Shown here: piece after piece, positions 3,793 to 64,000 of the stretch
Layout of the letters: each line of letters opens with the position of its first letter
Numbering within the stretch: position 1 is the stretch's first letter
IMG/VR virus record: IMGVR_UViG_3300045952_000124
Span: 1,531-65,530 of that record
Length of the DNA: 64,000 bases
Direction: 5' to 3' (one strand)
Source: a virus
Lineage: Duplodnaviria; Caudoviricetes
Notes under the pieces: generated by a model
Databases searched by the model: none
Told to the model about the DNA's origin: nothing
What the model saw: the letters and a program-made list of their open reading frames with translations, nothing else
Program-made: the position numbers and the translations under genes

Positions 3793-3844
3793 TTGACAGC
3801 CGTCCTGCGGCGGCGGTATAATGTCGTAGTCGCGGAATACGACA
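3793..3844 (+). promoter_or_regulatory. sigma70-type promoter P1 with degenerate shared start-site box
   Basis: TTGACA(3793)-18-TATAAT(3817) then GTCGTAGTCGCGGAATACGACA. Confidence 0.75.
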
Positions 3845-7036: not shown

Positions 7037-7897
7037 ATGGACAAAGGCAGCATAATCGGCGGCGACTTGACGGAGCGCATCGCCCGGCAGAGCCGCATGT
7101 ACGAAGACGGACCGCTTGCAATCGTGGAGCCTGCGCGTGTTGACACGGCGGTCGCGTATGACATGATCGCGCCGGAGTACGACGCGACGTTCTCAACGCC
7201 GCTTGCGCTTGCGGAGAACACGGTCGCGTTTGAATGGGTCAACAGGCACTACCGCGAATTGTGTGAGCTTGCGGCGGCTGCGCGACCGCAATACCCGGTG
7301 AACGTGCTTGACGTAGCCTGCGGTACTGGCCTGCTGCTTGACTACATAGACATACCGGGCAGCACGTATCAGGGGATTGACATATCGCACGGCATGCTGG
7401 CGCAGGCGCGCCGGAAGCATCCGCGCCACATGTTCTATGCGTTTGAGGCGGAGCATCTGGCGGCGCTGCCGATGCGGAGCGGCTACGCTCTGGCAGTCAG
7501 CATGTTCGGCAGTTGGTCGCACTTCGATGCGGCGCGGGTCGTTGACCAGTTGTGGCGCGTTATGCGGAGCGGCGGGCGCGTCCTGATCATGGCTATGAGC
7601 AGGCGGTACGCGCATCGCGAGAGCTACATTCTGCAGAAGAAGGGTTTGAAGGTTGATCGCAGGCTGTGGCGCTCCGACGATCTGCGGAACCTGTTTGAGC
7701 GCCGGGGCTTCGCGCAGGTGAAGATCCACGGCATGGACGGCTACGCCGACCCGCACATGGAACGTTGGGGTTGGTCGCAGCCTGCGATTGAACGATACCT
7801 GCGGGCGGAGCGGGCGACTTTGGGCCGGCTCTTACCGGACAGGTGTTTCAACCTGTGCCTTGAAGCGGTGCGCCCGTACACCGGAGTTGAGGAATGA
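7037..7897 (+). CDS. Class I SAM-dependent methyltransferase
   Basis: YDMIAPEYD, VLDVACGTG (motif I), GIDISHGMLAQAR, RVMRSGG. Confidence 0.9.
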   Translation: MDKGSIIGGDLTERIARQSRMYEDGPLAIVEPARVDTAVAYDMIAPEYDATFSTPLALAENTVAFEWVNRHYRELCELAAAARPQYPVNVLDVACGTGLLLDYIDIPGSTYQGIDISHGMLAQARRKHPRHMFYAFEAEHLAALPMRSGYALAVSMFGSWSHFDAARVVDQLWRVMRSGGRVLIMAMSRRYAHRESYILQKKGLKVDRRLWRSDDLRNLFERRGFAQVKIHGMDGYADPHMERWGWSQPAIERYLRAERATLGRLLPDRCFNLCLEAVRPYTGVEE

Positions 7898-9114
7898 GCG
7901 CCGCCGCAGGTCGCGCCGGGACCGGGGCAGGCTCCGGCACTACGGTCAAAGGCATGTCGCACGGCTCCGGGTCGTACCAACGCCGGGGCAACCTGACGAC
8001 GAACGTGTACGAAGAAGCGCTCTCCCGGCTAGTAGGACTGTACGCTGCAGGGGAGCGCGTGGTCGTAGCGTTCTCGGCGGGCAAGGATTCGGGCGTGTGC
8101 CTTGAGCTGTGCATAGAAGCCGCCCGGATAACCGGACGCCTGCCCGTTGACGTAGTAATGCGCGATGAGGAGATAATGTTTCCCGGCACGTTTGAGTACG
8201 CGGAGCGTGTGGCGAACCGACCGGAAGTAAACTTCAAGTGGCTAGTCGCGCACCAACCGATCATAAATTGCTTCAACCGGGCGGAGCCGTACTTCTGGGC
8301 GTTTGACCCGCTCCTGCCGCCCGATAAATGGGTCCGCACTCCGCCGCCGTTCGCTGAGGAAATGGGCGTTATGCACATTGAGACAATGGTGCATCCTGAC
8401 AGGTTCCCGATTGAGAGCGGGCAGACTTTGTTCTCGGTCGTAGGGCTGCGCGTGCAGGAGAGCCGGAACCGCCTGTACTCTATATTTTCCTCACGCGGAC
8501 ACCTGACGAAGCCCAACGCTTACGGCGTGCGGAATTGCCGCCCGATCTACGATTGGAAGCACGGCGACGTTTGGAAAGCAATCCACGAAAAGGGGTGGGA
8601 CTACAACCGGGCGTACGATGTGATGCTCCGCTTCGGAGTGAAGCAGTACGCCATGCGAATAGGACCGCCGACCTTGAACCCTCTCGGTGCGCGCATCTTG
8701 AAGCCTGCGGCGTCCGCTTGGCCCCGCTGGTTCGACAAGGTATGCGACAGGTTGCCGGGCGTGCGTCAGGTGGCGCTGTTCGGCTTGCGCGTCGTGCAGC
8801 CGGACAGGAGACAGGGCGAACACTGGCAGCAAACGTTCCAACGCGAATGTATTGACAACGCGCCCGGCTGGATAGCGGAGCGGGCAGTCGCTTACTCCAA
8901 CGCTATCCTAAAAGCGCACTCAAAGCACAGCACCGGACCACTGCCGGAGAAGATACCCTGCAGGATACACAAAGGCAACATCGGCAGTTGGAGGGCGCTG
9001 ACGCACGCCCTGTACAACGGCGATCCGTTCGCCCTGCGGACCGACCTGCCCGTCATAGAGCCGGAGTTCTTCCGGCAGGGAGCCGGAACGTGGGGCGGCA
9101 AGCCGACCTTTTAG
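7894..9114 (+). CDS. PAPS-reductase-family PP-loop protein (IbrA/DUF3440-like, DndC/SspD superfamily)
   Basis: VVVAFSAGKDSGV PP-loop, VVGLRVQESRNR, PIYDWKHGDVW, YNRAYD. Confidence 0.85.
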   Translation: MSAAAGRAGTGAGSGTTVKGMSHGSGSYQRRGNLTTNVYEEALSRLVGLYAAGERVVVAFSAGKDSGVCLELCIEAARITGRLPVDVVMRDEEIMFPGTFEYAERVANRPEVNFKWLVAHQPIINCFNRAEPYFWAFDPLLPPDKWVRTPPPFAEEMGVMHIETMVHPDRFPIESGQTLFSVVGLRVQESRNRLYSIFSSRGHLTKPNAYGVRNCRPIYDWKHGDVWKAIHEKGWDYNRAYDVMLRFGVKQYAMRIGPPTLNPLGARILKPAASAWPRWFDKVCDRLPGVRQVALFGLRVVQPDRRQGEHWQQTFQRECIDNAPGWIAERAVAYSNAILKAHSKHSTGPLPEKIPCRIHKGNIGSWRALTHALYNGDPFALRTDLPVIEPEFFRQGAGTWGGKPTF

Positions 9115-9124
9115 GTCGCGGAGT

Positions 9125-9144
9125 ATTGTTGTCATGACAACAAT
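9125..9144. promoter_or_regulatory. Perfect 20-bp palindrome, operator-like
   Basis: ATTGTTGTCATGACAACAAT equals its own reverse complement. Confidence 0.6.
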
Positions 9145-9172
9145 CGCTAGCAAAGATGTTCTAATTCACCCG

Positions 9173-9310
9173 GCAATAACGCTCCGCAGAGCCGCCGCAG
9201 GAAAAGCCCTGAAACGCTCTGAGAGCCATTCAGCCGCGTCAATACCGCGAATGAGTACACTTATAGTCATGCTGCTATTCTGACGATTTCGTGCGTGATA
9301 TTAGAACATG
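9173..9310 (+). repeat. Dispersed ~110-140 bp element, copy A
   Basis: CTGAGAGCCATTCAGCCGCGTCAA ... TATTCTGACGATTTCGTGC..GATATTAG shared with 33933-34040(-), 46125-46233 and (partly) 53472-53617. Confidence 0.9.
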
Positions 9311-9380
9311 AGTGTCGCAAACGCGACAGGGCGAAGTGAGGGCGGCGGAGCGGTGAGGGAACAGTTGTTCTAACGTCTAC

Positions 9381-10250
9381 ATGGGGGGGATGAGCGACAT
9401 GGCGGATTTAGTAGTGACGCAGGCGGACTTAGCGCAAGTGTATCAGGGGCTATACCGACCGGGCAACAAGAGGATCGCGGTAGACGGCTACACGGTACTT
9501 GACGGGCTTGACCTGACATTACCAAGCCTGTTCCCTGCGGCATGGGCGGGAGAGCTTGCGGCGGCGGCTGCGCTGCGCGGCAGGAAGGTCGAGAAGAAGG
9601 GGCGCGGACCGGGCAGTTTGGAGGGCGACGAAACGGCGGGCTTGGACTACCGGGTATTGACAATGAGCGGCATAAAGGACGCCTGCCCGTGGCTGTACAT
9701 ACTGTACCAATCGCCGCTCCTGCGGGCGGTCGTAGCGCACGAAGTTGGGGAGCCTGTTGACATAGCGCAGGACGAATGGGCGTTGAACGTCAACCTGCTA
9801 TTAGGCGGCGGCGGGCGGTACGAATGGCACGTTGACGGGCAACCGTACACGCTCCTGCTATACCCGGAGACGTTCTCGCATGAGGAAGGCGGCGCGCTCC
9901 TGTTGGCTCCGGGCATCAACCCGGACGGCACGACGCGGCAGTTGGCGGACTATACGCACAGGTACGCGCAGAAGAAGATCGGCGGGCGGGCGGAGCGCAT
10001 AGACCACTACCCCAATTGGGTGCAGACGGTGCGACCTGTCGCCGGGCGCTGCGTGATCTTCGATGGGAGCAGGATACCGCACGCGGTTGAACCCGTGTTC
10101 GTTGAGCGGAGCCGGGTGAGCGTGCCTATGGTGTACCTGCCCGCCACAGCCGCAGCAGCCGCCGCAGCCGCCGCAGGTCGCGACGATACGCTCTCGGGCT
10201 ATCTGTACGCAGAGCAGGAGCAGGAAGCGGAGCCGGAAGGGGACGCATGA
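9381..10250 (+). CDS. 2OG-Fe(II) oxygenase (HxD...H, hydroxylase type; resembles the BesD/HalD-like clade)
   Basis: YEWHVD, EGGALLL, FDGSRIPHAVEPV, RVSVPMVY jelly-roll motifs. Confidence 0.8.
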   Translation: MGGMSDMADLVVTQADLAQVYQGLYRPGNKRIAVDGYTVLDGLDLTLPSLFPAAWAGELAAAAALRGRKVEKKGRGPGSLEGDETAGLDYRVLTMSGIKDACPWLYILYQSPLLRAVVAHEVGEPVDIAQDEWALNVNLLLGGGGRYEWHVDGQPYTLLLYPETFSHEEGGALLLAPGINPDGTTRQLADYTHRYAQKKIGGRAERIDHYPNWVQTVRPVAGRCVIFDGSRIPHAVEPVFVERSRVSVPMVYLPATAAAAAAAAAGRDDTLSGYLYAEQEQEAEPEGDA

Positions 10251-11083
10251 TACAGGGCAGTTTGGCGCCCGTGCGAATATCGGTCGCGGTGACGCACCAC
10301 CCGGCGCGGGCGCACTGGATAGAGGGCGTAGTCAGTCGCTTCTCGGACGCGGAGCGGCGCGTGTATCCGGTCGTATATGAGGACACGGATAGCCGGGGCT
10401 TGTGGCACATAGCGCGGCAGGCTTGGCTAGGCTACGACCCGCAGGCTGACTATCACATCGTCACAGAGGACGACGTGCTAGCCTGCTCCGGCTTCGTCGG
10501 CATGGCTATTGAGGCGCTTACGGCGTTGACGGCGGCACGGGGCGAGACGCTGCCTGCCTGCTTCTACTGCCCACGCGGAGCGGTCGCGGAAGCGCAGGCA
10601 CGCGGGCATAGCTGGCTTTTGATTGACGACGGCTTTTGGGGGCAAGCTCAGGTATTGCCGACGCGGATGATTGAAGGGATGATTGAATGGGTAGACCGGG
10701 TATGGTTGCCGGGCATAAAGAACCGGGGCGACGCCCGCCCGTGCATGTTTATCATGGAGCAGGGCATGCCCGTGCATGTCAGCGTGCCGTCGCTGGTCGA
10801 GCATGCGGGCTTTGACGCATCGCTAATGGGACACGCGGGCAGGATGGGGTCGCACATTCGCCGGGCGCATCGGCTGATCGGGAAGGGGGAGCGCCCGGAT
10901 TGGGAAGCAGGGCTGCGACCGGGCGAAGTCCTGTACAGGCAATCGGCTTCACTGCGAAGCTACACCGAGAAGTACCGCACGTCGCTTCGCCCGGAGTACG
11001 TGGCATGGGTAGAAGCGGGCAGGGAGGGACTAACTTATGACAACTACCTCACGCAGCACGTCGCCCAAAGCGCCCAATCCTAA
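10247..11083 (+). CDS. GT-A fold glycosyltransferase (GT25-like)
   Basis: ISVAVTHHPAR N-terminus, HIVTEDDV acidic motif, PSLVEH...SLMGH. Confidence 0.7.
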   Translation: MIQGSLAPVRISVAVTHHPARAHWIEGVVSRFSDAERRVYPVVYEDTDSRGLWHIARQAWLGYDPQADYHIVTEDDVLACSGFVGMAIEALTALTAARGETLPACFYCPRGAVAEAQARGHSWLLIDDGFWGQAQVLPTRMIEGMIEWVDRVWLPGIKNRGDARPCMFIMEQGMPVHVSVPSLVEHAGFDASLMGHAGRMGSHIRRAHRLIGKGERPDWEAGLRPGEVLYRQSASLRSYTEKYRTSLRPEYVAWVEAGREGLTYDNYLTQHVAQSAQS

Positions 11084-11864
11084 GCACCTGTACGGCGACG
11101 CTGGCGACCGATACCCGGTTGAGGTTGGCGACGTGTGGCAGATCGGCAAGCACATCCTAGCCTGCGGCGACCTTGAGATGGGCGCGGGCGTTGAGTTCCT
11201 TGCGACGTACGTGCGCGGCGGCAGACCGGACGTGAGCTTCGTTGACCCGCCGTGGAACGCGGGCAACGCGAGAAGCTTCCGCACGAAGGCAGGCGTCGGC
11301 AGGGCAGTCAACTTCTACCGCCTGATAAGCAAAGTATTGGAGACGCTTGCGAAGTCGCGGCGCGACGTGTTCATAGAGATGGGCGTCTCGGAGTGCGACA
11401 ATGTGCGGGCGCGGCTTGAAGAATACGGGGCGCGCCTGCTTGACACATGGGACATAACGTACTACCGCAAGAACCCGTGTCGGCTCCTGTGGGGCACGTT
11501 CACGGGGCAGGCATACCCGCGCCTGTTGGACTGCAACCGACTGGACGACGAAGTAGCCACGCCGAAAGTAATCGCCGCCGCCGCAGGCAGGGGTGATATA
11601 GTCTTTGACCCGTGCATGGGCAGGGGGTTGTCGGCGGTATCGGCGCTCCGGGCAGGGGCGACGGCGGCAGGGCTTGAGTTGAACCCGCGACGGCTAGCGG
11701 TTACTATTGACAAGCTTGCCTCATTAGGGGCAGGGGCGGAGCGCGGGCAGGAGCCGCGCCGGATCGCCGTCCTCTCCTGCATGACAGGGGCGGCAGAAGC
11801 AACCGAAGCAGACAAGGAGCATCCCACCAATGGCAACCCGCACGCAGACGCAGAAGAAGACTAA
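11037..11864 (+). CDS. DNA amino-methyltransferase-like protein (beta arrangement)
   Basis: VEVGDVWQIGKHILACGD, FVDPPWN (motif IV) followed by VFDPCMGRG (motif I) and GLELNP. Confidence 0.8.
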   Translation: MTTTSRSTSPKAPNPKHLYGDAGDRYPVEVGDVWQIGKHILACGDLEMGAGVEFLATYVRGGRPDVSFVDPPWNAGNARSFRTKAGVGRAVNFYRLISKVLETLAKSRRDVFIEMGVSECDNVRARLEEYGARLLDTWDITYYRKNPCRLLWGTFTGQAYPRLLDCNRLDDEVATPKVIAAAAGRGDIVFDPCMGRGLSAVSALRAGATAAGLELNPRRLAVTIDKLASLGAGAERGQEPRRIAVLSCMTGAAEATEADKEHPTNGNPHADAEED

Positions 11865-12747
11865 AGGCAAGGCAGAGGTAGAGCGCAGGTTCGCGAAGCT
11901 GGAGCGCTTGAACGTCATATACGTGCCGATTGACAGCATCAGGTACAACGGCTACAACCCGAACAGGCAGTCAGATCACGACTTTGACCTGCTCTGCAAG
12001 AGCATGGAGGAAGACGGGTTCACGCAGCCGATACTGGTAAACGACGGCAGCACGGCTCCGCAGCACTTGAACGAAATAGTTGACGGAGAACACCGTCACA
12101 GGGCGGCGCGGGTCTTAGGCTACGAAGAAGTGCCAATCGTGTACGTGCCGTTCACTGCGGAGCAGATGCGTATCTCAACGCTCCGGCACAACCGGGCGCG
12201 GGGCAGTGAGGACATGGAGCTATCCGCCGAAGTCCTGCGCGACCTGCAGCGACTAGGCGCGCTTGACATGGCTCAGGACAGCCTCATGATGGACGACATT
12301 GAGATGCAGCACCTATTGGACGACATAGGAGCCGCCGAAGCGCTGGCAAGTGAGGAGTTCTCAACAGCGTGGGAGCCTACTTCGGCGCAGGACACGACGC
12401 TTGACGGCAAGATGAAGCCGGAACACGGCGTCCGGCAAGACAGCATGACGCCGGAAGCAGCCGACGCGATCCGCGAGAACGAACGGCGCATACAGGAAGC
12501 AAAGACCGACGAAGAACGCGCCCTTGCCCGGCGCGACGCCGACCTGTTCCGTATAACGCTCTTGTTCGCCGGAGAGCAAGCCCGCATCGTCCGCGCCGTT
12601 CTCGGCTCCGAAGCCGCGCCCGCCCTGCTCCGGCTCTGCACGGCGGAGTTGGCACGGCTTGAAGCCGAAGCCGCATCCCTGCAGGCGGAGCGCGACGGCT
12701 TGACCATAGAGCAGGCGCAGGAAGAAGCGGCAACCGCCGCCGCGTAG
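11830..12747 (+). CDS. ParB/Srx-domain protein (IbrB-like)
   Basis: NGYNPN, SMEEDGFTQPILV, IVDGEHRHRAA, STLRHNRARG. Confidence 0.9.
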   Translation: MATRTQTQKKTKGKAEVERRFAKLERLNVIYVPIDSIRYNGYNPNRQSDHDFDLLCKSMEEDGFTQPILVNDGSTAPQHLNEIVDGEHRHRAARVLGYEEVPIVYVPFTAEQMRISTLRHNRARGSEDMELSAEVLRDLQRLGALDMAQDSLMMDDIEMQHLLDDIGAAEALASEEFSTAWEPTSAQDTTLDGKMKPEHGVRQDSMTPEAADAIRENERRIQEAKTDEERALARRDADLFRITLLFAGEQARIVRAVLGSEAAPALLRLCTAELARLEAEAASLQAERDGLTIEQAQEEAATAAA

Positions 12748-28871: not shown

Positions 28872-29044
28872 CCTTTAGTCCTTAGCGAACCTACCGCCCG
28901 GAATTAGCCGACGCGCAGAGGGGCAGTCCTCCACCCGATGCGCCCGGCTATTTCCATTGTCCGACCGGGCAGCTCAGGCGAAGCAGAGCAGGCAGGAGCC
29001 GCCGCAGGGCCGCAGGTCGCGCAAGGCAACAGGAAGCAAAAGAT

Positions 29045-32000
29045 ATGGCAGATAACACGATACACGAAACAGTAATATTGGACGGCAATTCCGCAGGGGC
29101 GGAGCGTGCTATCGTGCGAACAGCCGACAGTATGGGCGTTGCTGAGAAGAAGGCAACTAGCTTCGGGGCGCGCATCAAAGCGTGGGGGCAGAACGTATCG
29201 CAGGCTGTTACCCGCACAGCAACGGGCGTAAAGAAGGCAGGCTCCGACCTTAGTAGCGGTCTGGACAAAGCGGAGCGCAGCACGTCCAAGATGAGCAAGG
29301 TTGCGCCCGGATTTATTCGCGGTCTAACCGGGATGAAGCTAGGCATCTTAGGAGCCGCGCTTGCCGCAGCGAAGTTGATAAAGGGTCTGATTGACATAGC
29401 AGGGCAGTCGGACCAAGCGCGGGAATTAGGCGAAACATGGAAGAAGTTGAAGGCGCAGATGGTCGCGCCGTTCGTGCATTTCCTAGCCGCAGCGTTCTCA
29501 ATATTGAACCGGGTCATGTCCGACCCGGCTGTGCAGAGGCTAATCGGTTGGTTCGCGGACCTTGCCCGGATCGTCCTGTCCGCCGTGCTGCCTGCAATCT
29601 CTGCGCTTGCCGGAGCCTTTCAAGGCTTCGCCGCCGCAGTCGTATCGGGCGATTGGGCAAACATATTCACACGGACTTGGGAAGGCTTCGTCGCAGGTTG
29701 GAACGATGCGGGCAAGGCGGGCGGCGTCGCTGCAGGAGCATCGTTCAATAAAGCGTTTGAGGCGGAAGCGGCAAAGGCGGCGGGCGGCGGCGGCGGCGGC
29801 AAGGCTGCGGGCGGTTTCCTGCGGAAGATAGGCGACTTGGGAACGGCTGCGGTTGACAGCCTGCTCTCCGCGTTCAGCAAGCCGGACCTAGATGTACTCG
29901 ACCAAGCAGCCGCAGCGATAAAGAGCCGGCTTGAAACGCTGTTCAAGCGGGGCGATATTGCGGAGGTAAACATAATCCCGGCGCAGATTGCCGGAGAGAA
30001 CGCGGTCGCGTTCGCTCTTGCCGAAGCGAACAAGGCGGGAGCCGACACGGAGAAGATCGTCGCCCGCGTCCGCGCCCGGTTGGTTACTCTCGGACCTGCC
30101 GTGCAGGACTACGTTGAGAACCTAATCCGCGCCCGCGAAGCGATGCGCCAACTGGAAGCCGCGACCGCCGACCTTGAAGAAGTGCAGTCGGAGCTAACGC
30201 GGGCGCAGGCTGAGTTCGCCGCAGCGCAATTGAGACAGGCTCAGGAAGCCGCAAAGCTGCTGCCTATATCAGACGCCCTGCGCGACAATGAGCAGGCTTT
30301 ACAGCGCCTCACAATCGCGCAGACGGCGGACCGCGAGAAGATTACAAGTCTAGCGGAAGAACAGGAGGACGCGGAGCGGGAGATAGCCCGGCTGCAGGGC
30401 GAACAGGCGGCGAAGCTTGCGGCATTGAAGCCGCTCCGCGACGCTGTGACGGCGGCGGCGGAAGCGCAGGCTGCGGCGGAGCGCAAAGTCAGGGACGCTC
30501 AGGATGAGCTAATCCCGTTGCAGGACAAGCTATATGAGCAGAACAAGGCAATCGCCGCCGCCGCAGAAGGGGTCACTGCAGCATCGGCGGAGCTAGCGGA
30601 CCTGCAGGAGCGTATTGGCGAAGCGCAAGCCGCCCGGCAGGAAGAAATATCGGACCTGCAGCAGCAGATTGAGGAAGCGGTACTGACGCAGGAAGCGGCG
30701 TTGAAGCAGGTCGCGGAGCATTACGCCCGGCAGATCGCGGACCAACAGAAGATCGTTGACGATGTAGACGCCCGTTGGAAGCGTGAGATAGACGGCGCGA
30801 CCGAAGCGTACCGGGCGGCGCAGCGCATACTTGCGTTGGAGGACAGGCGGCTCCGCATCGCCAATCTGCAGTACGCAAGGGAGCGGCTTGCGGCGCAGGG
30901 CATTACTGACCCCAACAAGCGGATCGCCGCGCTAGCGAAAATCAACCGGGCGCAGGAGCAATACAACGACCGGACGAAGGATGGGTACGAAGTCGCCCAA
31001 CTTGCGGCGCAGGTCGCGGAGGAAGAACTCAAGCTAAAGCAGGAAGCGGTTGACGCGGAGAAGGCGGAAGCGGTCGCGACGATAGCCCGCTTACAGGAAG
31101 CGCTTGAAAAAGAGCAGAAGTCGGCGGCGGAGCGGATCGCCAGCATCAGGGAGCAGGGCGCGATCCGGCTCCGCGACCTGCAGAGGGCGAACGACGAACA
31201 GACGAAGATAGAGCAGTCGGCAGTAAAGGAAGCGCAGGCGCGGGTAGAAGCGGCTCAGGCTGTGCAGGCGGCGGCGCAGGAGCAGGCTGACGCGACGGCG
31301 GCAAGCATTGAGGAAGGGAGCCGCCGCATCGAATTGCTCTCCCGAGAAGCCGAAGCAGCCCGGCGCACGGCAGAGGACGCCCGCACGCTATTGGAGAAGC
31401 GTGAGGCGGCGGTCCTGTCCGAGACGCAGGGAGCAATTGAAGCGGCGGAAGTGCGGGCTAAGAGCCTGTCGGACCAGCGCGCCGAAATTGAGGACCGACT
31501 AGGCGACGAAGCGCGGGCGCTTGAAGAACGCATATCGCGTGAGCAAAACGCGCTAGCGCTCCGCAAGTCGGAGTTGGAGGAACAGGCGGAGATTGAGAAC
31601 CGCCCACTACAGGCACGGCTTGATGCGTTAGGGCAGGAAGAAGCAGGGGCGCAGAAGCGCGTTGACGACGCGCAGGCGCTTGTAGATAAATATACCCTTG
31701 TCGCAGAGTTGGCGCAGGCGCGGGCGGAAGCCGAAGCCCGGAGCGCGGAGAGCATCGCGGCGCAGCGACAGGTGCTTGACGAAATGATAGCGGCAGCGCA
31801 AGCCGCAGGCGGAGGGGGAGCCGCCGCAGGACCGGACCTGTCCGGGTTCAACAGTGAGCTATCAAAGCTAATACAGGGCAGCAAGCCGCTTATAACCGAC
31901 TTCTGGCAGGGCTTCATAGATGAGCTTGTCAAGCGCAACCCGGACATTGTAAAAGCTTGGGATGATCTGGTCGCAAGGTTCAGCCTGTCCGGGCTTGGCA

Positions 32001-46282: not shown

Positions 46283-46374
46283 ATTGGTCCGACCAATTGC
46301 CTAGATTGGCCTAGAATTACCTTGCGCTGCCTGCTGCCCCTTGCTATAATTGTCGTAGGTCGGACATACAACAC
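46283..46374 (+). promoter_or_regulatory. Early-type promoter P2
   Basis: ATTGG repeats, TTGCGC(46322)-17-TATAAT(46345), TGTCGTAGGTCGGACATAC. Confidence 0.8.
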
Positions 46375-50200: not shown

Positions 50201-50363
50201 CGCCCAAAACGGCGCTCTGAGATGACACAGGGCGCGTCAGAATAGCCCTGCGTGTATGTTCGCCTGCGTGAACTACTGCAGGGCTTCTCTGTTGCCTGTC
50301 GTGCGCCGCCGCCGCCGCAGGCTCCGCGACCTGCGCCCGGCAGAGAGCCGGCCACGCGCCAAT

Positions 50364-50450
50364 ATTGGTGCGAATATTGGTAGCGGATTGGTCCCGAAAC
50401 AGGTTGATACCCCACGCAGGACTTGCTATAATGTCTTAGGTAGGACATAC
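50364..50450 (+). promoter_or_regulatory. Early-type promoter P3
   Basis: ATTGG at 50364/50376/50387, TTGATA-17-TATAAT(50427), TGTCTTAGGTAGGACATAC. Confidence 0.8.
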
Positions 50451-51271: not shown

Positions 51272-51360
51272 ATTGGTCGCAGATTGGTCCTGCGGACCGG
51301 GCAGATCGGCTTGACGCCCCTCCGCAGGACTTGCTATAATGTCGTAGGTAGGACATACGA
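51272..51360 (+). promoter_or_regulatory. Early-type promoter P4
   Basis: ATTGG at 51272/51283, TTGACG-18-TATAAT(51335), TGTCGTAGGTAGGACATAC. Confidence 0.8.
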
Positions 51361-53676: not shown

Positions 53677-53770
53677 ATTGGGCGTAGATTGGCGGCAGAT
53701 TGGGCGCGGAGCGGCTTGACCCTGCTCCGCCGACCATGCTATAATTGTCGTAGGTCGGACATACAACACA
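53677..53770 (+). promoter_or_regulatory. Early-type promoter P5
   Basis: ATTGG at 53677/53688/53699, TTGACC-18-TATAAT(53740), TGTCGTAGGTCGGACATAC. Confidence 0.8.
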
Positions 53771-55589: not shown

Positions 55590-55650
55590 TTGACACACCT
55601 GCGGCGGCGGCGTATACTTCGCAGGTCGGACACACGACACACGACACGGA
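55590..55650 (+). promoter_or_regulatory. Promoter P6
   Basis: TTGACA-17-TATACT then TCGCAGGTCGGACACACGACACACG; near-identical to P8. Confidence 0.8.
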
Positions 55651-55844: not shown

Positions 55845-55907
55845 CGGAAAGATGCGTCCTAGTGGCTCTCAGGAGCCGGGGCGCGGAGCGAATTGGAGGC
55901 AATACAC

Positions 55908-56135
55908 ATGGCTAGATACGTGCCTATAACAGAAGCGGAGCGCATGCGGCGTGCGTCGGAGTTGATAACAGAGACGACGAACGCTTACGAGAGGTTTATG
56001 CTCCTGTCCACAGATGAGGCGTTGAACGCTAGCAAGCGGGCGGACATGTTGATAGAAGCGCGGAAGTGCTTGGAGCTTCTAGGCAAGCTTACGGGCGCGC
56101 TTCCGGTCGCGCCGACCGCAGAGGAGTACAACTAA
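55908..56135 (+). CDS. Hypothetical protein
   Basis: SD GGAGG. Confidence 0.6.
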   Translation: MARYVPITEAERMRRASELITETTNAYERFMLLSTDEALNASKRADMLIEARKCLELLGKLTGALPVAPTAEEYN

Positions 56136-57088
56136 TGAGCGGCATTGGAGCGATACCCGTCAAGCGCGGCTGCGGCACGCGGCAGGCGGGCGGAGTGTAT
56201 TGGGAGTTGGGTATAGGTCCGGGCGGCGCGCCTGCAGAGGCGTTTCTGGTAGACGCTCCGCAGCTTCTACCGGAAGGGTACGTGCTACCAAACCGGGGCG
56301 TCGGCATACTGGAGCGGGGCGCAGTAACGCACTTGGTAGACCGGATCGGGCTGTCGGATTACCCTAACACGCTGGACTACTTTTTGGAGGGCAAGGAGTA
56401 CGGCTACAGCCGCCGTCTCCCGGCGACGCTTGACTACAGCGTGCTAGGAGAAGCGTCGCGGCTCCTGCCCGTGCATGACCGCGCGTTCCTGCACAACTAT
56501 GCGGACCTGTGCGCGGCGAACGTGACGCTGCCCTCTGTAATCTGCCCGAAGGGGTTGCCGCACCACCCGCTATGGTGCGCTATCGGCAGGGCGGAGCAGG
56601 TCGGTTGGCAGGAGTACGGAATAGAATTGGAGCCGCCGCAGGAGTTGAGGTCGTTCGGCACGATTGAGCGGGTCGGAGTAATCCTGCCGACGCAGCGCGT
56701 GAACCCTTTGTACGTGCGTGAGGACGCGCTTGCGGCGTCGGCACGCGGAGAGGCGTACGAACACTACCACATCGAAGTCGTGCCGCCTGAACCGATGTGC
56801 TGCTCCGCTTGGTGGAGCCTGCTTGACCCGGACACCTGCGAACCTGCGCCGCAGGTACACGGTTGGGGCGACGGCTACAGCAAGCGGAAAATGCCGTCGT
56901 TTGAATACAACGCCTACAAGGTTCCGGGCGACTTCTCTCCGAAGTACGCCCCGGCGATATTTATGAGCCTGCCTGCTTCGCGGATCGTAATCGTCCGCGA
57001 CGAAGACGACCCGCAGTACGCGGAGAAGGCGGAGCGCATAGACCGCATGCTTGACGGGCGGCTACACTTTACGGAGGTAGATCAGTGA
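56135..57088 (+). CDS. Conserved-looking hypothetical protein (RGCG.R..GGVY N-terminus)
   Basis: TAATG coupling; YPN..D...EG...G.SRRLP motif. Confidence 0.65.
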   Translation: MSGIGAIPVKRGCGTRQAGGVYWELGIGPGGAPAEAFLVDAPQLLPEGYVLPNRGVGILERGAVTHLVDRIGLSDYPNTLDYFLEGKEYGYSRRLPATLDYSVLGEASRLLPVHDRAFLHNYADLCAANVTLPSVICPKGLPHHPLWCAIGRAEQVGWQEYGIELEPPQELRSFGTIERVGVILPTQRVNPLYVREDALAASARGEAYEHYHIEVVPPEPMCCSAWWSLLDPDTCEPAPQVHGWGDGYSKRKMPSFEYNAYKVPGDFSPKYAPAIFMSLPASRIVIVRDEDDPQYAEKAERIDRMLDGRLHFTEVDQ

Positions 57089-59491: not shown

Positions 59492-59570
59492 ATTGGTAGC
59501 GGATTGGCGGCGGAGCGGCTTGACGGCGGCTCCGCCTGCCGCTATAATGTCTGTAGTAGGACATACGACG
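59492..59570 (+). promoter_or_regulatory. Early-type promoter P7
   Basis: ATTGG at 59492/59503, TTGACG-17-TATAAT(59543), TGTCTGTAGTAGGACATAC. Confidence 0.8.
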
Positions 59571-60983: not shown

Positions 60984-61090
60984 CAGCGTGCGGGCGCTCC
61001 TGAGATGACACAGGAGCGCCGATCCGGGTGGGGCGTGTGTGTTTGTACCTGTGGGTACGCGCCGCCCGGCAGAAAGGAGCAGGTAACAGC

Positions 61091-62281: not shown

Positions 62282-62345
62282 TTGACACACCTGCGGCGGC
62301 GGCGGTATACTTCGCAGGTAGGACACACGACACACGGCACACGAC
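62282..62345 (+). promoter_or_regulatory. Promoter P8
   Basis: TTGACA-18-TATACT then TCGCAGGTAGGACACACGACACACG. Confidence 0.8.
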
Positions 62346-62376
62346 ACGGAACAGAACGGAAGGGGGATGCACGGAT

Positions 62377-62688
62377 ATGGAAGGATACGAATTGGGCGCG
62401 GGCGCGGCTCCGGCATACAAGCTGGTTAGCGCGGGCTACGTGGCTAACGTCGCTGCTACAAGCACAAAGACGGTGCAGCGTTGGGCAGAGGACGGGTTGC
62501 TGCAGAGCTACGACCGGGTGAACGGCGACATGTGGGTATTCGATAAGGCGTACATTGACGAGATCGCGGAGCAGTTGCGGGCGGGCAAGAAGGCGCTGCA
62601 ATCTCTGCAGGGCGCAGGGGAGCAGGGCGCGCCGGACACGGCGGAGCCGGAAGCCGTCGCGGTCGCGTCAACCGACGCCGGACAATGA
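62377..62688 (+). CDS. MerR/Xis/BldC-like (HTH_17) DNA-binding protein
   Basis: LVSAGYVANVAATSTKTVQRWAEDGLLQSY..NG.MWVF matches the excisionase-type winged HTH. Confidence 0.75.
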   Translation: MEGYELGAGAAPAYKLVSAGYVANVAATSTKTVQRWAEDGLLQSYDRVNGDMWVFDKAYIDEIAEQLRAGKKALQSLQGAGEQGAPDTAEPEAVAVASTDAGQ

Positions 62689-62766
62689 GAAGCCCCGGTG
62701 CGGCAACCGGGGCTTCTGAGGCAATACACACAACGTTGAGCGGGTCGGACACTCGCGGTTGAGGCA
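62683..62766 (-). ncRNA. Candidate ~80-nt antisense small RNA
   Basis: Minus-strand TTGACA(62800)-17-TATCAT(62777) with extended TGn, followed ~50 nt later by the 62688-62717 hairpin. Confidence 0.5.
62688..62717. terminator. 12-bp stem hairpin, possibly a bidirectional terminator
   Basis: AGAAGCCCCGGT-6-ACCGGGGCTTCT directly after the HTH stop codon. Confidence 0.65.
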
Positions 62767-62844
62767 TCCCTATGATAGCAGGCGTCGTGCCGCCTGTCAA
62801 CGGGTAATCTGCAAGAGGCAAGTATTCTACAGGAGTATTGCTCT

Positions 62845-63291
62845 ATGAAGACATTTAGACTTGACCCCGGCACGGACGGTCACTTCGTCGCCGCGTACAT
62901 GGAGTTGGACGGGCAGATCGCGGAGCCTTTAGCGGCGATGCTGCAGGTATTGAAGGAGCGCGCCGAGACGGGGCGAGAGCCGGACCTTACAGCGCTCCGC
63001 GCACACCTGCAGAACGCATGGAGCGCATTGACCTACAGCCGCAACGTTATGCGCCTGTACGTTGAGCGGCACGGTCCGCGACTGTTCAGCGAAGCGCAGG
63101 CGGCGATGCGCGCAGATATGGGCAAACTGGTAGACCTTGAAGCGGAGAAGGCGAAGCGTACGGCGATGCGTCCGATGTGCAGGTGTACAACTGACGACGT
63201 GACGCAGGAGCCGCCGCAGGAGCCTTCTCCGCAAGCCGGGTCTATCCCTGCCGAGACTACACACAAGGGGGAGACGCCTATGGATAGTTAG
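62845..63291 (+). CDS. Hypothetical protein
   Basis: SD AGGAG. Confidence 0.6.
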   Translation: MKTFRLDPGTDGHFVAAYMELDGQIAEPLAAMLQVLKERAETGREPDLTALRAHLQNAWSALTYSRNVMRLYVERHGPRLFSEAQAAMRADMGKLVDLEAEKAKRTAMRPMCRCTTDDVTQEPPQEPSPQAGSIPAETTHKGETPMDS

Positions 63292-63479
63292 GTTGTAAGG
63301 TTTCCCGGTGAGAGCGGGGCGGGCGTTTTGAGTTGCGCGCCGCTCCGACCGAAAGAACCCGGCTCCTATGCTCCGCAGGCTTGTTAGTTGTCCGTCAGGG
63401 CGCTTGAAACGGCTTGAGAGCGGCGGAGCCGGGCGAAGCGGTACGATTACACCCGCAGAACGATTGGAGGCAGTACAGA

Positions 63480-64000
63480 ATGACAGTAGAAACTTGGCGG
63501 GCTTTACGGGCGCTCCTGCAGCGACCGATTGCGTTTCACAGGGCGCTAGCAGAATTGGCGGGCAGCACGGCGGGCGGCGTGTTCCTGTCGCAAGCGCTTT
63601 ACTGGCAGGAGCGGTCAACCGACGATGCAGGTTGGTACTGGAAAACGCAGGCGGAATGGTACGACGAAACGATGTTGACCCGGTCGGAGCAGGAGCGGGC
63701 GCGGGCGCGGCTCCGCGAATTGGGCGTGCTGCATGAGAAGAAGGCAGGCACGCCCGCGAAGCTTTACTACCGGGTAGACTTTGAGCGGTTGTACGACCTG
63801 CTTGGCAGTCCGCAGGCGGACCCGCAAACAAGGATGCTGGATCGTGCAGACTTGGGCGTGCAGAACGGACAAGCAAGCCTGTCAAATCCTGCAACCTCTT
63901 ACAATACAGAGACTACAAGCATAGACTACGCAGAGACTACACTTGCGGCAGGGGCGCGAGAGCCTGCGGCGGCGGCTGCACCTGCACCTGCGGCGGCTGC
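63480..64000 (+). CDS. Phage replication initiator (O-like wHTH), truncated by the window end; not in the ORF track
   Basis: My translation from ATG 63480 (SD GGAGG): RPIAFHRALAELAGSTAGGVFLSQALYW...GWYWKTQAEWYDETMLTRSEQERARARL...GTPAKLYYRVD...TETT. Confidence 0.8.
   Translation, partial: MTVETWRALRALLQRPIAFHRALAELAGSTAGGVFLSQALYWQERSTDDAGWYWKTQAEWYDETMLTRSEQERARARLRELGVLHEKKAGTPAKLYYRVDFERLYDLLGSPQADPQTRMLDRADLGVQNGQASLSNPATSYNTETTSIDYAETTLAAGAREPAAAAAPAPAAA

Follow-up and report, generated by a model that had tools for sequence, protein, structure and literature searches.

A minus-strand promoter faces a hairpin in front of the replication genes

In virus record IMGVR_UViG_3300045952_000124 we examined a window of 64 kb, bases 1531-65530 of the 65,530-bp record, and in it an element located in the 156-nt non-coding spacer between the gene of a helix-turn-helix (HTH) protein (62377-62688) and gene 62845-63291. 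The element consists of a minus-strand promoter and a hairpin, and, as judged from the sequence statistics, this promoter-hairpin pair is real and unusual. Our leading interpretation, which we hold tentatively, is that the element constitutes a small convergent cis-antisense transcription unit, resembling lambda pO/OOP, between a regulator gene and the replication module. Its apparent complementarity to many sites in the phage appears to be largely the product of its likeness to a ribosome-binding site (RBS) and of a repeat-rich, GC-biased genome.

The promoter has a -35 box identical to the consensus (TTGACA, 62800-62795, six of six positions) and, after a spacer of 17 nt, an extended -10 element at 62772-62780, in which TG (62780-62779) and c are followed by TATCAT (62777-62772); TTGACA-17-TATCAT with its TGn is present where the original prediction had placed it. 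The match to the sigma-70/sigma-A consensus is 11 of 12. Counting the sites with at least 11 of the 12 consensus positions (TTGACA/TATAAT) and a 16-18-nt spacer on both strands of the window yielded eight on the plus strand (3793, 27576, 50404, 51311, 53716, 55590, 59520 and 62282), each of which precedes genes, and a single one on the minus strand, at 62800-62772. In 200 dinucleotide shuffles the mean number of such sites was 0.14 for both strands together and the maximum 2, and no additional site was found in the remaining 1,530 bases of the genome. By this measure the minus-strand promoter exceeds chance expectation. Its TGcTAT form of the extended -10 is common to the plus-strand promoters at 46323, 50404, 51311 and 53716, and it sits in non-coding DNA, which makes up about one-tenth of the genome. 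We regard it as a putative host-sigma-type promoter on an otherwise silent strand. Promoter geometry predicts a transcription start at 62764-62767, G 62765 being the seventh base past the -10.

Leftward of the promoter, positions 62688-62717 form, on either strand, the perfect 12-bp hairpin that had been reported there, with a 6-nt loop and an 8-bp GC core. It is the longest perfect hairpin of the window and one of six with a stem of at least 9 bp; the folding energies of the two strands are -25.6 and -25.8 kcal/mol (z -3.9 and -4.9 relative to shuffles). Its first base is the last base of the HTH gene's stop codon (62686-62688). The tail that follows the GC core reads UUCUCAUUGU on the minus strand and UUCUGAGGCA on the plus strand. 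With the basal AGAA/UUCU pairs counted in, the tail of a minus-strand RNA is UUCUCAUU, with five U in eight, and that of a plus-strand RNA UUCUGAGG, with three U in eight; the minus tail reaches five only when four A-U or G-U-rich basal pairs count as tail. The hairpin appears somewhat better suited to stop leftward than rightward transcripts. This would fit the need for rightward read-through, because no plus-strand promoter with at least 9 of 12 consensus positions was found between 62311 and 63480, so that gene 62845 and the replication initiator gene need transcripts that read through the spacer.

The distance from promoter to hairpin is ~78 nt, and the predicted minus-strand RNA runs from ~62765 to ~62683-62688, a length of ~78-83 nt. 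A short minus-strand RNA is plausible, and the element probably yields an antisense product of ~80 nt; the claim that promoter and hairpin define an RNA of this size has the support of the sequence statistics, the RNA still being a predicted one. Its fold has an energy of -33.3 kcal/mol (z -3.5), the significance of which is owed to the terminator hairpin. The RNA body (minus strand, 62718-62765) folds into a weak 5' stem-loop with the loop UCCGACC, followed by a single-stranded UUGCCUC; taken alone, this 5' body folds no better than shuffles (z -0.59), and the same is true of a long imperfect palindrome at 62734-62801 (z -0.96). Two words in this region, which the original prediction took for seeds, are the 13-mer GAGGCAATACACA (62718-62730, plus strand) and the 10-mer GGTCGGACAC (62743-62752, plus strand). 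They lie in the most accessible parts of the predicted fold, with mean unpaired probabilities of 0.67 and 0.74 and opening energies of 4.9 and 2.0 kcal/mol. A leaderless or small minus-strand open reading frame (ORF) was considered and rejected: the ATG at 62767-62765 lies too near the -10, and the minus-strand frame there is rich in Arg and Pro and is the antisense of the HTH gene.

A proposed convergent cis-antisense unit

The order of the region is HTH gene, antisense unit, gene 62845 and O-like Rep, with the plus-strand promoter P62282 facing the minus-strand promoter. P62282 (62282-62311, TTGACA-18-TATACT) is an early promoter, and its transcript must cross the element. The upstream gene encodes a 103-aa HTH protein (HTH_17, excisionase or MerR-like), which matches phrog_66 with E 3.7e-4 and PF12728 with 22.7 bits, below the Pfam cut-off of 27. 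The downstream gene, 62845-63291, also on the plus strand, encodes a 148-aa protein for which our searches found no relative. It is followed on the same strand by the gene of a 332-aa replication initiator with an O-like or DnaD-like N-terminal domain (63480-64000), which continues across the record end.

We propose that the minus-strand promoter would fire leftward from ~62765 and that most leftward transcripts would end at the 12-bp hairpin abutting the HTH stop codon, producing the ~78-83-nt RNA. Gene 62845 and the initiator gene would be fed by read-through across the spacer, starting at P62282 or at points further upstream. Such a unit could act in cis by two routes. RNA polymerases could collide with or occlude one another between the facing promoters, which are ~450 bp apart, and the short RNA could pair perfectly with nt 62688-62765 of the long mRNA, over ~78 bp, forming a duplex that would be a substrate of RNase III between the regulator and the replication cistrons. 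The net effect would be to tune or time the early transcription that reaches the replication module, as lambda pO/oop does with pR/cII. The RBS-like and leader-like words would then be features of the plus strand and not seeds acting in trans.

A number of observations weigh against this proposal. A scan for the terminator consensus called the hairpin on neither strand, there being no clean U-run on either, and the hairpin is equally readable as a plus-strand terminator or attenuator of the HTH gene. No cis translational target is obvious, because the RNA would overlap the HTH gene by just ~1-8 nt, depending on its 3' end, and would stop short of the RBS of gene 62845. Neither an integrase nor a repressor was recognised in the phage genome with PHROGs and Pfam, which leaves an OOP-like role in the choice between lysis and lysogeny without a visible partner. 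The runs that hold the stretch are three soil DNA runs (contigs), with no RNA run among them. Comparison with other genomes points the same way: the phage, IMG/VR, metagenome and genome collections yielded no relative with this spacer, and a search for relatives of gp62845 returned the protein itself alone. An alignment search with the Rep domain, which is widespread in prophages of Proteobacteria, Acidobacteriota and Chloroflexota, retrieved 145 loci, none of which shares the spacer or the neighbouring genes; only two of them have, in the 1.5 kb preceding rep, an antisense promoter that agrees with the consensus at 11 or more of its 12 positions.

The other searches around the element gave little. 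A blastn comparison of 62300-63600 with phages gave no match, and no relative was confirmed when IMG/VR was scanned with one protein at a time (TerL, gp62845, the HTH protein or the Rep N-domain). The HTH protein has one relative of 66% identity (P0003), encoded on a contig of 1,032 bp, and a metagenome scan with the HTH alignment retrieved three distant loci, P0003 not among them, which are without the promoters or motifs. No Rfam family matched the window at gathering score; scanning 62400-63000 at a permissive E-value yielded only sub-threshold hairpin matches.

An RBS-type word and a reading without an antisense RNA

Among the alternatives the one that survives best, although we consider it rather unlikely, is that no functional minus-strand RNA is made. 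The hairpin would then serve the HTH gene that precedes it, as a plus-strand terminator, an attenuator or a processing site, GAGGCAATACACA would be a relic or an accessory Shine-Dalgarno (SD)-like element, and the promoter match would be coincidental or the promoter silent in the host. Beginning on the last base of a stop codon, the hairpin occupies the usual place of a terminator, and an 11/12 promoter match, expected by chance ~0.07 times per strand per genome, is not impossible as a coincidence. Set against this are the minus-strand promoter itself, which is no worse than the phage's own and has an extended -10 of the same form, its location in the non-coding tenth of the genome, where it faces the hairpin at a distance suited to a small RNA (sRNA), and the purine-rich plus-strand tail of the hairpin with its three U in eight. 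In addition, the hairpin cannot be an efficient plus-strand terminator, because the downstream genes need read-through.

The 13-mer bears on the same question. GAGGCAATACACA is an RBS-type word with no start codon behind it and includes the first of three GAGGCA copies in the spacer. It recurs exactly at 55896 and with one mismatch at 1984 and 512, all on the plus strand; the shorter matches at genes 60051, 48098, 54388 and 63480 are as the original prediction described them. The word family GAGGCAAYACAC has four copies on the plus strand and none on the minus strand: two directly before start codons (genes 1996 and 55908), one within a gene (512) and one in the spacer of the element. GAGGCA occurs 21 times on the plus strand versus 5 on the minus strand, with 7 of the plus-strand copies placed 11-13 nt before a start codon; on these counts GAGGCA is the phage's favoured SD-plus-spacer word. 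Both strand biases, and a spacer that holds three copies of GAGGCA as well as a real SD, speak for the reading in which the spacer's words belong to the plus strand and no antisense RNA is made.

Runs of at least 9 nt are shared by the candidate window with five translation-initiation regions (TIRs). A level of at least five was reached by 6 of 80 real RBS windows, by none of 386 coding windows and by 4 of 2000 shuffles, and because it is found among RBS windows and not among coding windows the 13-mer behaves as a plus-strand RBS word. The region is clearly RBS-like, but a good real RBS, read in antisense, would look just as multi-target. At the same time the 13-mer is, on sequence criteria, not a working RBS. 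Its position-weight score is 1.0-1.3 bits versus a median of 3.3 for real RBSs, from a matrix too blurred to be of use, and neither a start codon nor an open frame lies behind it, which counts against the reading without an antisense RNA. A small plus-strand ORF behind the word was rejected, the sequence (ACA ACG TTG ...) having no start codon and reaching a TGA after 10 codons.

Some further features of these words were observed. The copy at 512-524, which agrees with the RBS-type word at 12 of 13 positions, lies inside a Holliday-junction-resolvase-like gene (18-569). The copy has no start codon of its own, and the GTG that opens the next gene comes 23 nt downstream. The three plus-strand GAGGCA copies of the spacer lie within 100 nt of one another, at 62718, 62761 and 62815 (spacings of 43 and 54 bp), and are the sole such cluster within 150 nt in the window; one of them is upstream of the minus-strand -35 and outside the predicted RNA. 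In the minimum-free-energy fold of the plus-strand RNA, GGCAAUAC (62720-62727) can pair over 8 bp with GUAUUGCU (62836-62843), which sits between the SD and the AUG of gene 62845, and the antisense RNA would compete for this pairing. We set this long-range pairing aside as a signal, since the fold is no better than shuffles (z -0.84).

Complementarity to RBSs and promoter leaders

The original prediction saw in the element a single trans-acting RNA that shuts down many early genes and replication. In such a reading, which we consider improbable, the ~80-nt sRNA would block with its UUGCCUC-type 13-mer the RBSs of genes 55908, 1996, 60051, 48098, 54388 and rep. Its GUGUCCGACC loop would pair at the start of gene 59608 and, in the transcripts made from P46323, P53716 and P55590, at the 5' end, so that early expression would change in a coordinated way. 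In favour of this reading are the accessibility of both words, one of them in the 7-nt loop UCCGACC, the matches of 13/13 at the RBS of 55908 and 12/13 at that of 1996 and the rarity of a five-TIR level in shuffles and coding windows.

The leader word supplies a further argument for pairing in trans and several against it. GGTCGGACAC is the same as the first transcribed bases at P55590, P46323 and P53716, and gene 59608 has the word in its start region; the copy reported earlier, at 62743-62752, is there, and the word recurs exactly at 55624. The 9-mer GGTCGGACA occurs elsewhere on the plus strand at 46358, 53753, 59600 and 49271 and on the minus strand at 28957 and 29516. A run of at least 9 nt shared with at least three leaders is a level attained 32 times each among 2000 shuffles and among 8952 natural windows. 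The plus-strand promoters share TATAAT-GTCGTA-GGTMGGACAYACRAC, and the leader word fits three of nine promoter leaders over at least 9 nt, the rest reading GGTAGGACA, with a C-to-A change in the middle. The bases covered by the leader word are the variable GGTCGG and not the GGACAYAC that is common to nearly all leaders. Pairing would fall on the extreme 5' end of the mRNA, 30-50 nt from the RBS, and at P55590 zero to two of the 5'-terminal bases paired may be untranscribed. Of the four 11-nt matches on the wrong strand, one, at 29527, covers the leader word. The 5' stem-loop in which the word is presented, being no better than shuffles, likewise counts against trans pairing.

For the target statistics we took the 49-nt RNA body and scored its exact repeats of at least 10 nt elsewhere on the same strand. 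Five blocks of the body have such a repeat, versus a genome mean of 4.5, and of 3000 random windows 49% contained as many blocks, as did 42% of 361 intergenic ones; the genome is rich in short exact repeats, with 2,646 maximal direct repeats of at least 12 nt. The 11 same-strand matches of at least 10 nt fall in two TIRs (55908 and 60051), one promoter leader (55624), one other spacer and, seven times, in coding sequence. The longest match to the RNA body in the genome, 14 nt at 56664, lies within gene 56135-57088 and gives the best duplex (-36.3 kcal/mol), and the 12-nt match at 512 is also in a gene. This longer site, 56664-56677, is an exact copy of 62736-62749 (TTGAGCGGGTCGGA) and extends to 17 of 18 positions with one indel. 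Three matches fall together in the P55590 operon, but such clusters are common, being present in 4,671 of 12,745 windows, of which 672 include two matches of at least 13 nt.

Taken jointly, the properties of the two words were found in none of 21,237 plus-strand and none of 21,284 minus-strand overlapping 49-nt windows, with thresholds that were set post hoc at the candidate's own values; a weaker joint criterion was met by 218 plus-strand and 108 minus-strand windows. With thresholds so fixed, the co-occurrence of the two words is suggestive and not decisive. RNAduplex energies against all TIRs failed as a discriminator, everything in this GC-rich genome lying between -26 and -39 kcal/mol, and the candidate ranked in the middle of the antisense-of-RBS controls.

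Since 6 of 80 real RBS windows match equally many TIRs, the antisense of any consensus-type RBS would look multi-target. The proposal of a trans-acting RNA that shuts down early genes and replication is not upheld: the candidate does not surpass the top six of 80 real RBS windows in its RBS matches, its 10-nt matches occur at the background rate, its leader word fits three of nine leaders and its best complementarity is inside a coding region. The original prediction had itself asked whether the matches exceed what the genome's general SD/spacer composition would give, and for the most part they do not. Were trans pairing nonetheless real, a one-directional and apparently virulent phage with a single opposite-strand, two-seed sRNA would represent an RNA-based early-to-middle switch without a protein repressor, a scenario to which we give a low probability.

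An operator-like palindrome at the plus-strand promoters

A palindrome, ATGTC-N8-GACAT, spans the -10 and the start point in five plus-strand promoters (46323, 50404, 51311, 53716 and 59520), and the leader word is its right half in those five. The sites lie at 46345-46370, 50427-50450, 51335-51360, 53740-53765 and 59543-59565, with the consensus TATAATGTCGTAGGTMGGACATACGAC; the copy at 3793 is degenerate. The palindrome is probably the operator of a phage or host regulator. The copy of the leader word at 62743 has no left half-site (GTTGA in place of the expected GTGTC) and no promoter ahead of it. Exact-pattern scans of IMG/VR and the genome collection for the two-word arrangement and for the promoter-operator word gave no match.

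These observations bear on the least probable of the alternatives, namely that the spacer works at the level of DNA, as a protein-binding control region, an operator cluster or an origin-associated site. GGTCGGACAC would then be a copy of the site at early-promoter start points, the GAGGCA trio would be sites of the HTH protein or of the initiator, and the minus-strand promoter would be controlled by such sites or serve them, for example in transcriptional activation of an origin. The operator-like palindrome with the leader word as its right half, the placement of five of the eight GGTCGGACA copies within 60 nt downstream of a strong promoter, the uniqueness of the GAGGCA trio and the adjoining replication module are in its favour, but the 62743 copy lacks the left half-site, no iteron-like repeats or AT-rich stretch were found in 62650-63500, the imperfect palindrome at 62734-62801 is no better than shuffles and GAGGCA is simply the phage's SD-plus-spacer word, so that we regard this reading as very doubtful.

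Two of the plus-strand promoters, P55590 (55588-55660) and P62282 (62280-62352), are duplicates with 92% identity over 73 nt; they have in common TTGACA..TATACT and the CA-rich leader ACACGACACACG, and their first genes, for a 58-aa membrane-like protein and for the HTH protein, are unrelated. That the element is a relic of this duplication was rejected, since what the two loci have in common is confined to these 73 nt of promoter and leader and does not extend to their first genes.

The phage and its other features

A 127-bp terminal repeat in the record points to a circular unit of 65,403 bp, with a whole-genome GC content of 62%. All 81 genes identified by a simple gene call are on the plus strand, and no tRNA was found in the circular 65,403-bp genome. 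By PHROGs and Pfam we recognised a siphovirus-type structural module (small and large terminase, portal, major head, tape measure and Dit), DNA-modification genes, ParB-like genes and the O-like/DnaD-like replication initiator. TerL and the major capsid protein are at most ~25-28% identical to those of any cultured phage, and no close relative of the whole genome was found in any collection searched. Identical sequence was found in three soil metagenome studies; two further soil studies, beyond the source, contain it at low depth.

Two other features were observed away from the element. At 7894-12747, a cluster of genes encodes PAPS-reductase-like, endonuclease V-like, glucosyltransferase-like, methyltransferase-like and ParB-like nuclease proteins, and it may be a DNA-modification or anti-restriction module. 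The 15-nt word CTGAGATGACACAGG occurs four times (50217, 53518, 58556 and 61000), at or just past gene ends; the copies at 50217 and 58556 have 29 nt in common, and the sole other intergenic perfect hairpin (10 bp), at 60993-61020, has the word as its loop and in part of its stem. CTGAGATGACACAGG may be a conserved terminator or processing element.

Comparison with known phage antisense RNAs

Lambda OOP is 77 nt long and overlaps ~50 nt of the cII coding region. The RNA predicted here resembles it in being short (~80 nt) and in coming from a promoter that faces the main early transcription, in lying between a regulator gene and the replication initiator gene and in ending at a hairpin. The original prediction had drawn this analogy with reserve, and the likeness in position holds better than it allowed, because the plus-strand transcript that reaches gene 62845 and the initiator gene would contain the complement of the whole RNA. 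According to PMC3985674, lambda pO is convergent to pR, lowers pR transcription beyond pO and affects replication, and oop RNA acts on the cII mRNA through RNase III; the review PMC12197685 also describes convergent interference and the RNase III-dependent action of oop, and mentions c4 RNA. As proposed, the unit would share with pO/OOP both the convergent interference with replication-bound transcripts and an RNase III-dependent action on the overlapped mRNA.

Unlike OOP, the predicted RNA overlaps the upstream gene by only those ~1-8 nt, which is no substantial coding overlap, and it has no homology to OOP in sequence or structure, as the lack of an Rfam match at gathering score attests. Unlike in lambda, an extra gene without relatives found in our searches stands between the unit and the initiator gene, no integrase, repressor or cII-type decision module was recognised, and the Rep family differs from lambda O. 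By analogy the element may work like OOP; we do not call it a member of the OOP family because substantial coding overlap and homology are both lacking.

The small antisense RNA sar of P22 is transcribed from within a spacer between the cistrons of a one-directional operon, against a strong promoter, and covers the RBS of the downstream gene ant. The position of the minus-strand promoter, in an intercistronic spacer and convergent with a strong promoter, is like that of sar (RF00262). Unlike sar, the predicted RNA would start ~65 nt before the SD of gene 62845 and lead away from that SD, and the cmscan score for the family, 14.4 bits (E 6.9) versus a gathering score of 43, comes from the hairpin only.

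For pairing in trans with many targets the nearest precedents are the c4 RNAs of P1/P7 and the CI RNA of P4. The seed boxes of these RNAs match several sites in the phage's own early transcripts, are conserved and have been validated, and the RNAs arise by processing of the very transcript in which the targets lie, on the same strand. Unlike these, the RNA predicted here would come from the opposite strand, and its boxes are not distinguishable from RBS-likeness plus background repeats.

The matches described here illustrate a pitfall for antisense-target prediction in GC-rich phages: in this 62% GC genome an average 49-nt window has 4-5 exact repeats of at least 10 nt elsewhere, and the reverse complement of a consensus-type RBS then appears to match many genes. 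If the RNA is real, the element would be an OOP/pO-like convergent unit in a phage without recognisable relatives or a lysogeny module, which would suggest that an antisense promoter at the gate of the replication genes is a recurrent design and not a lambdoid peculiarity.

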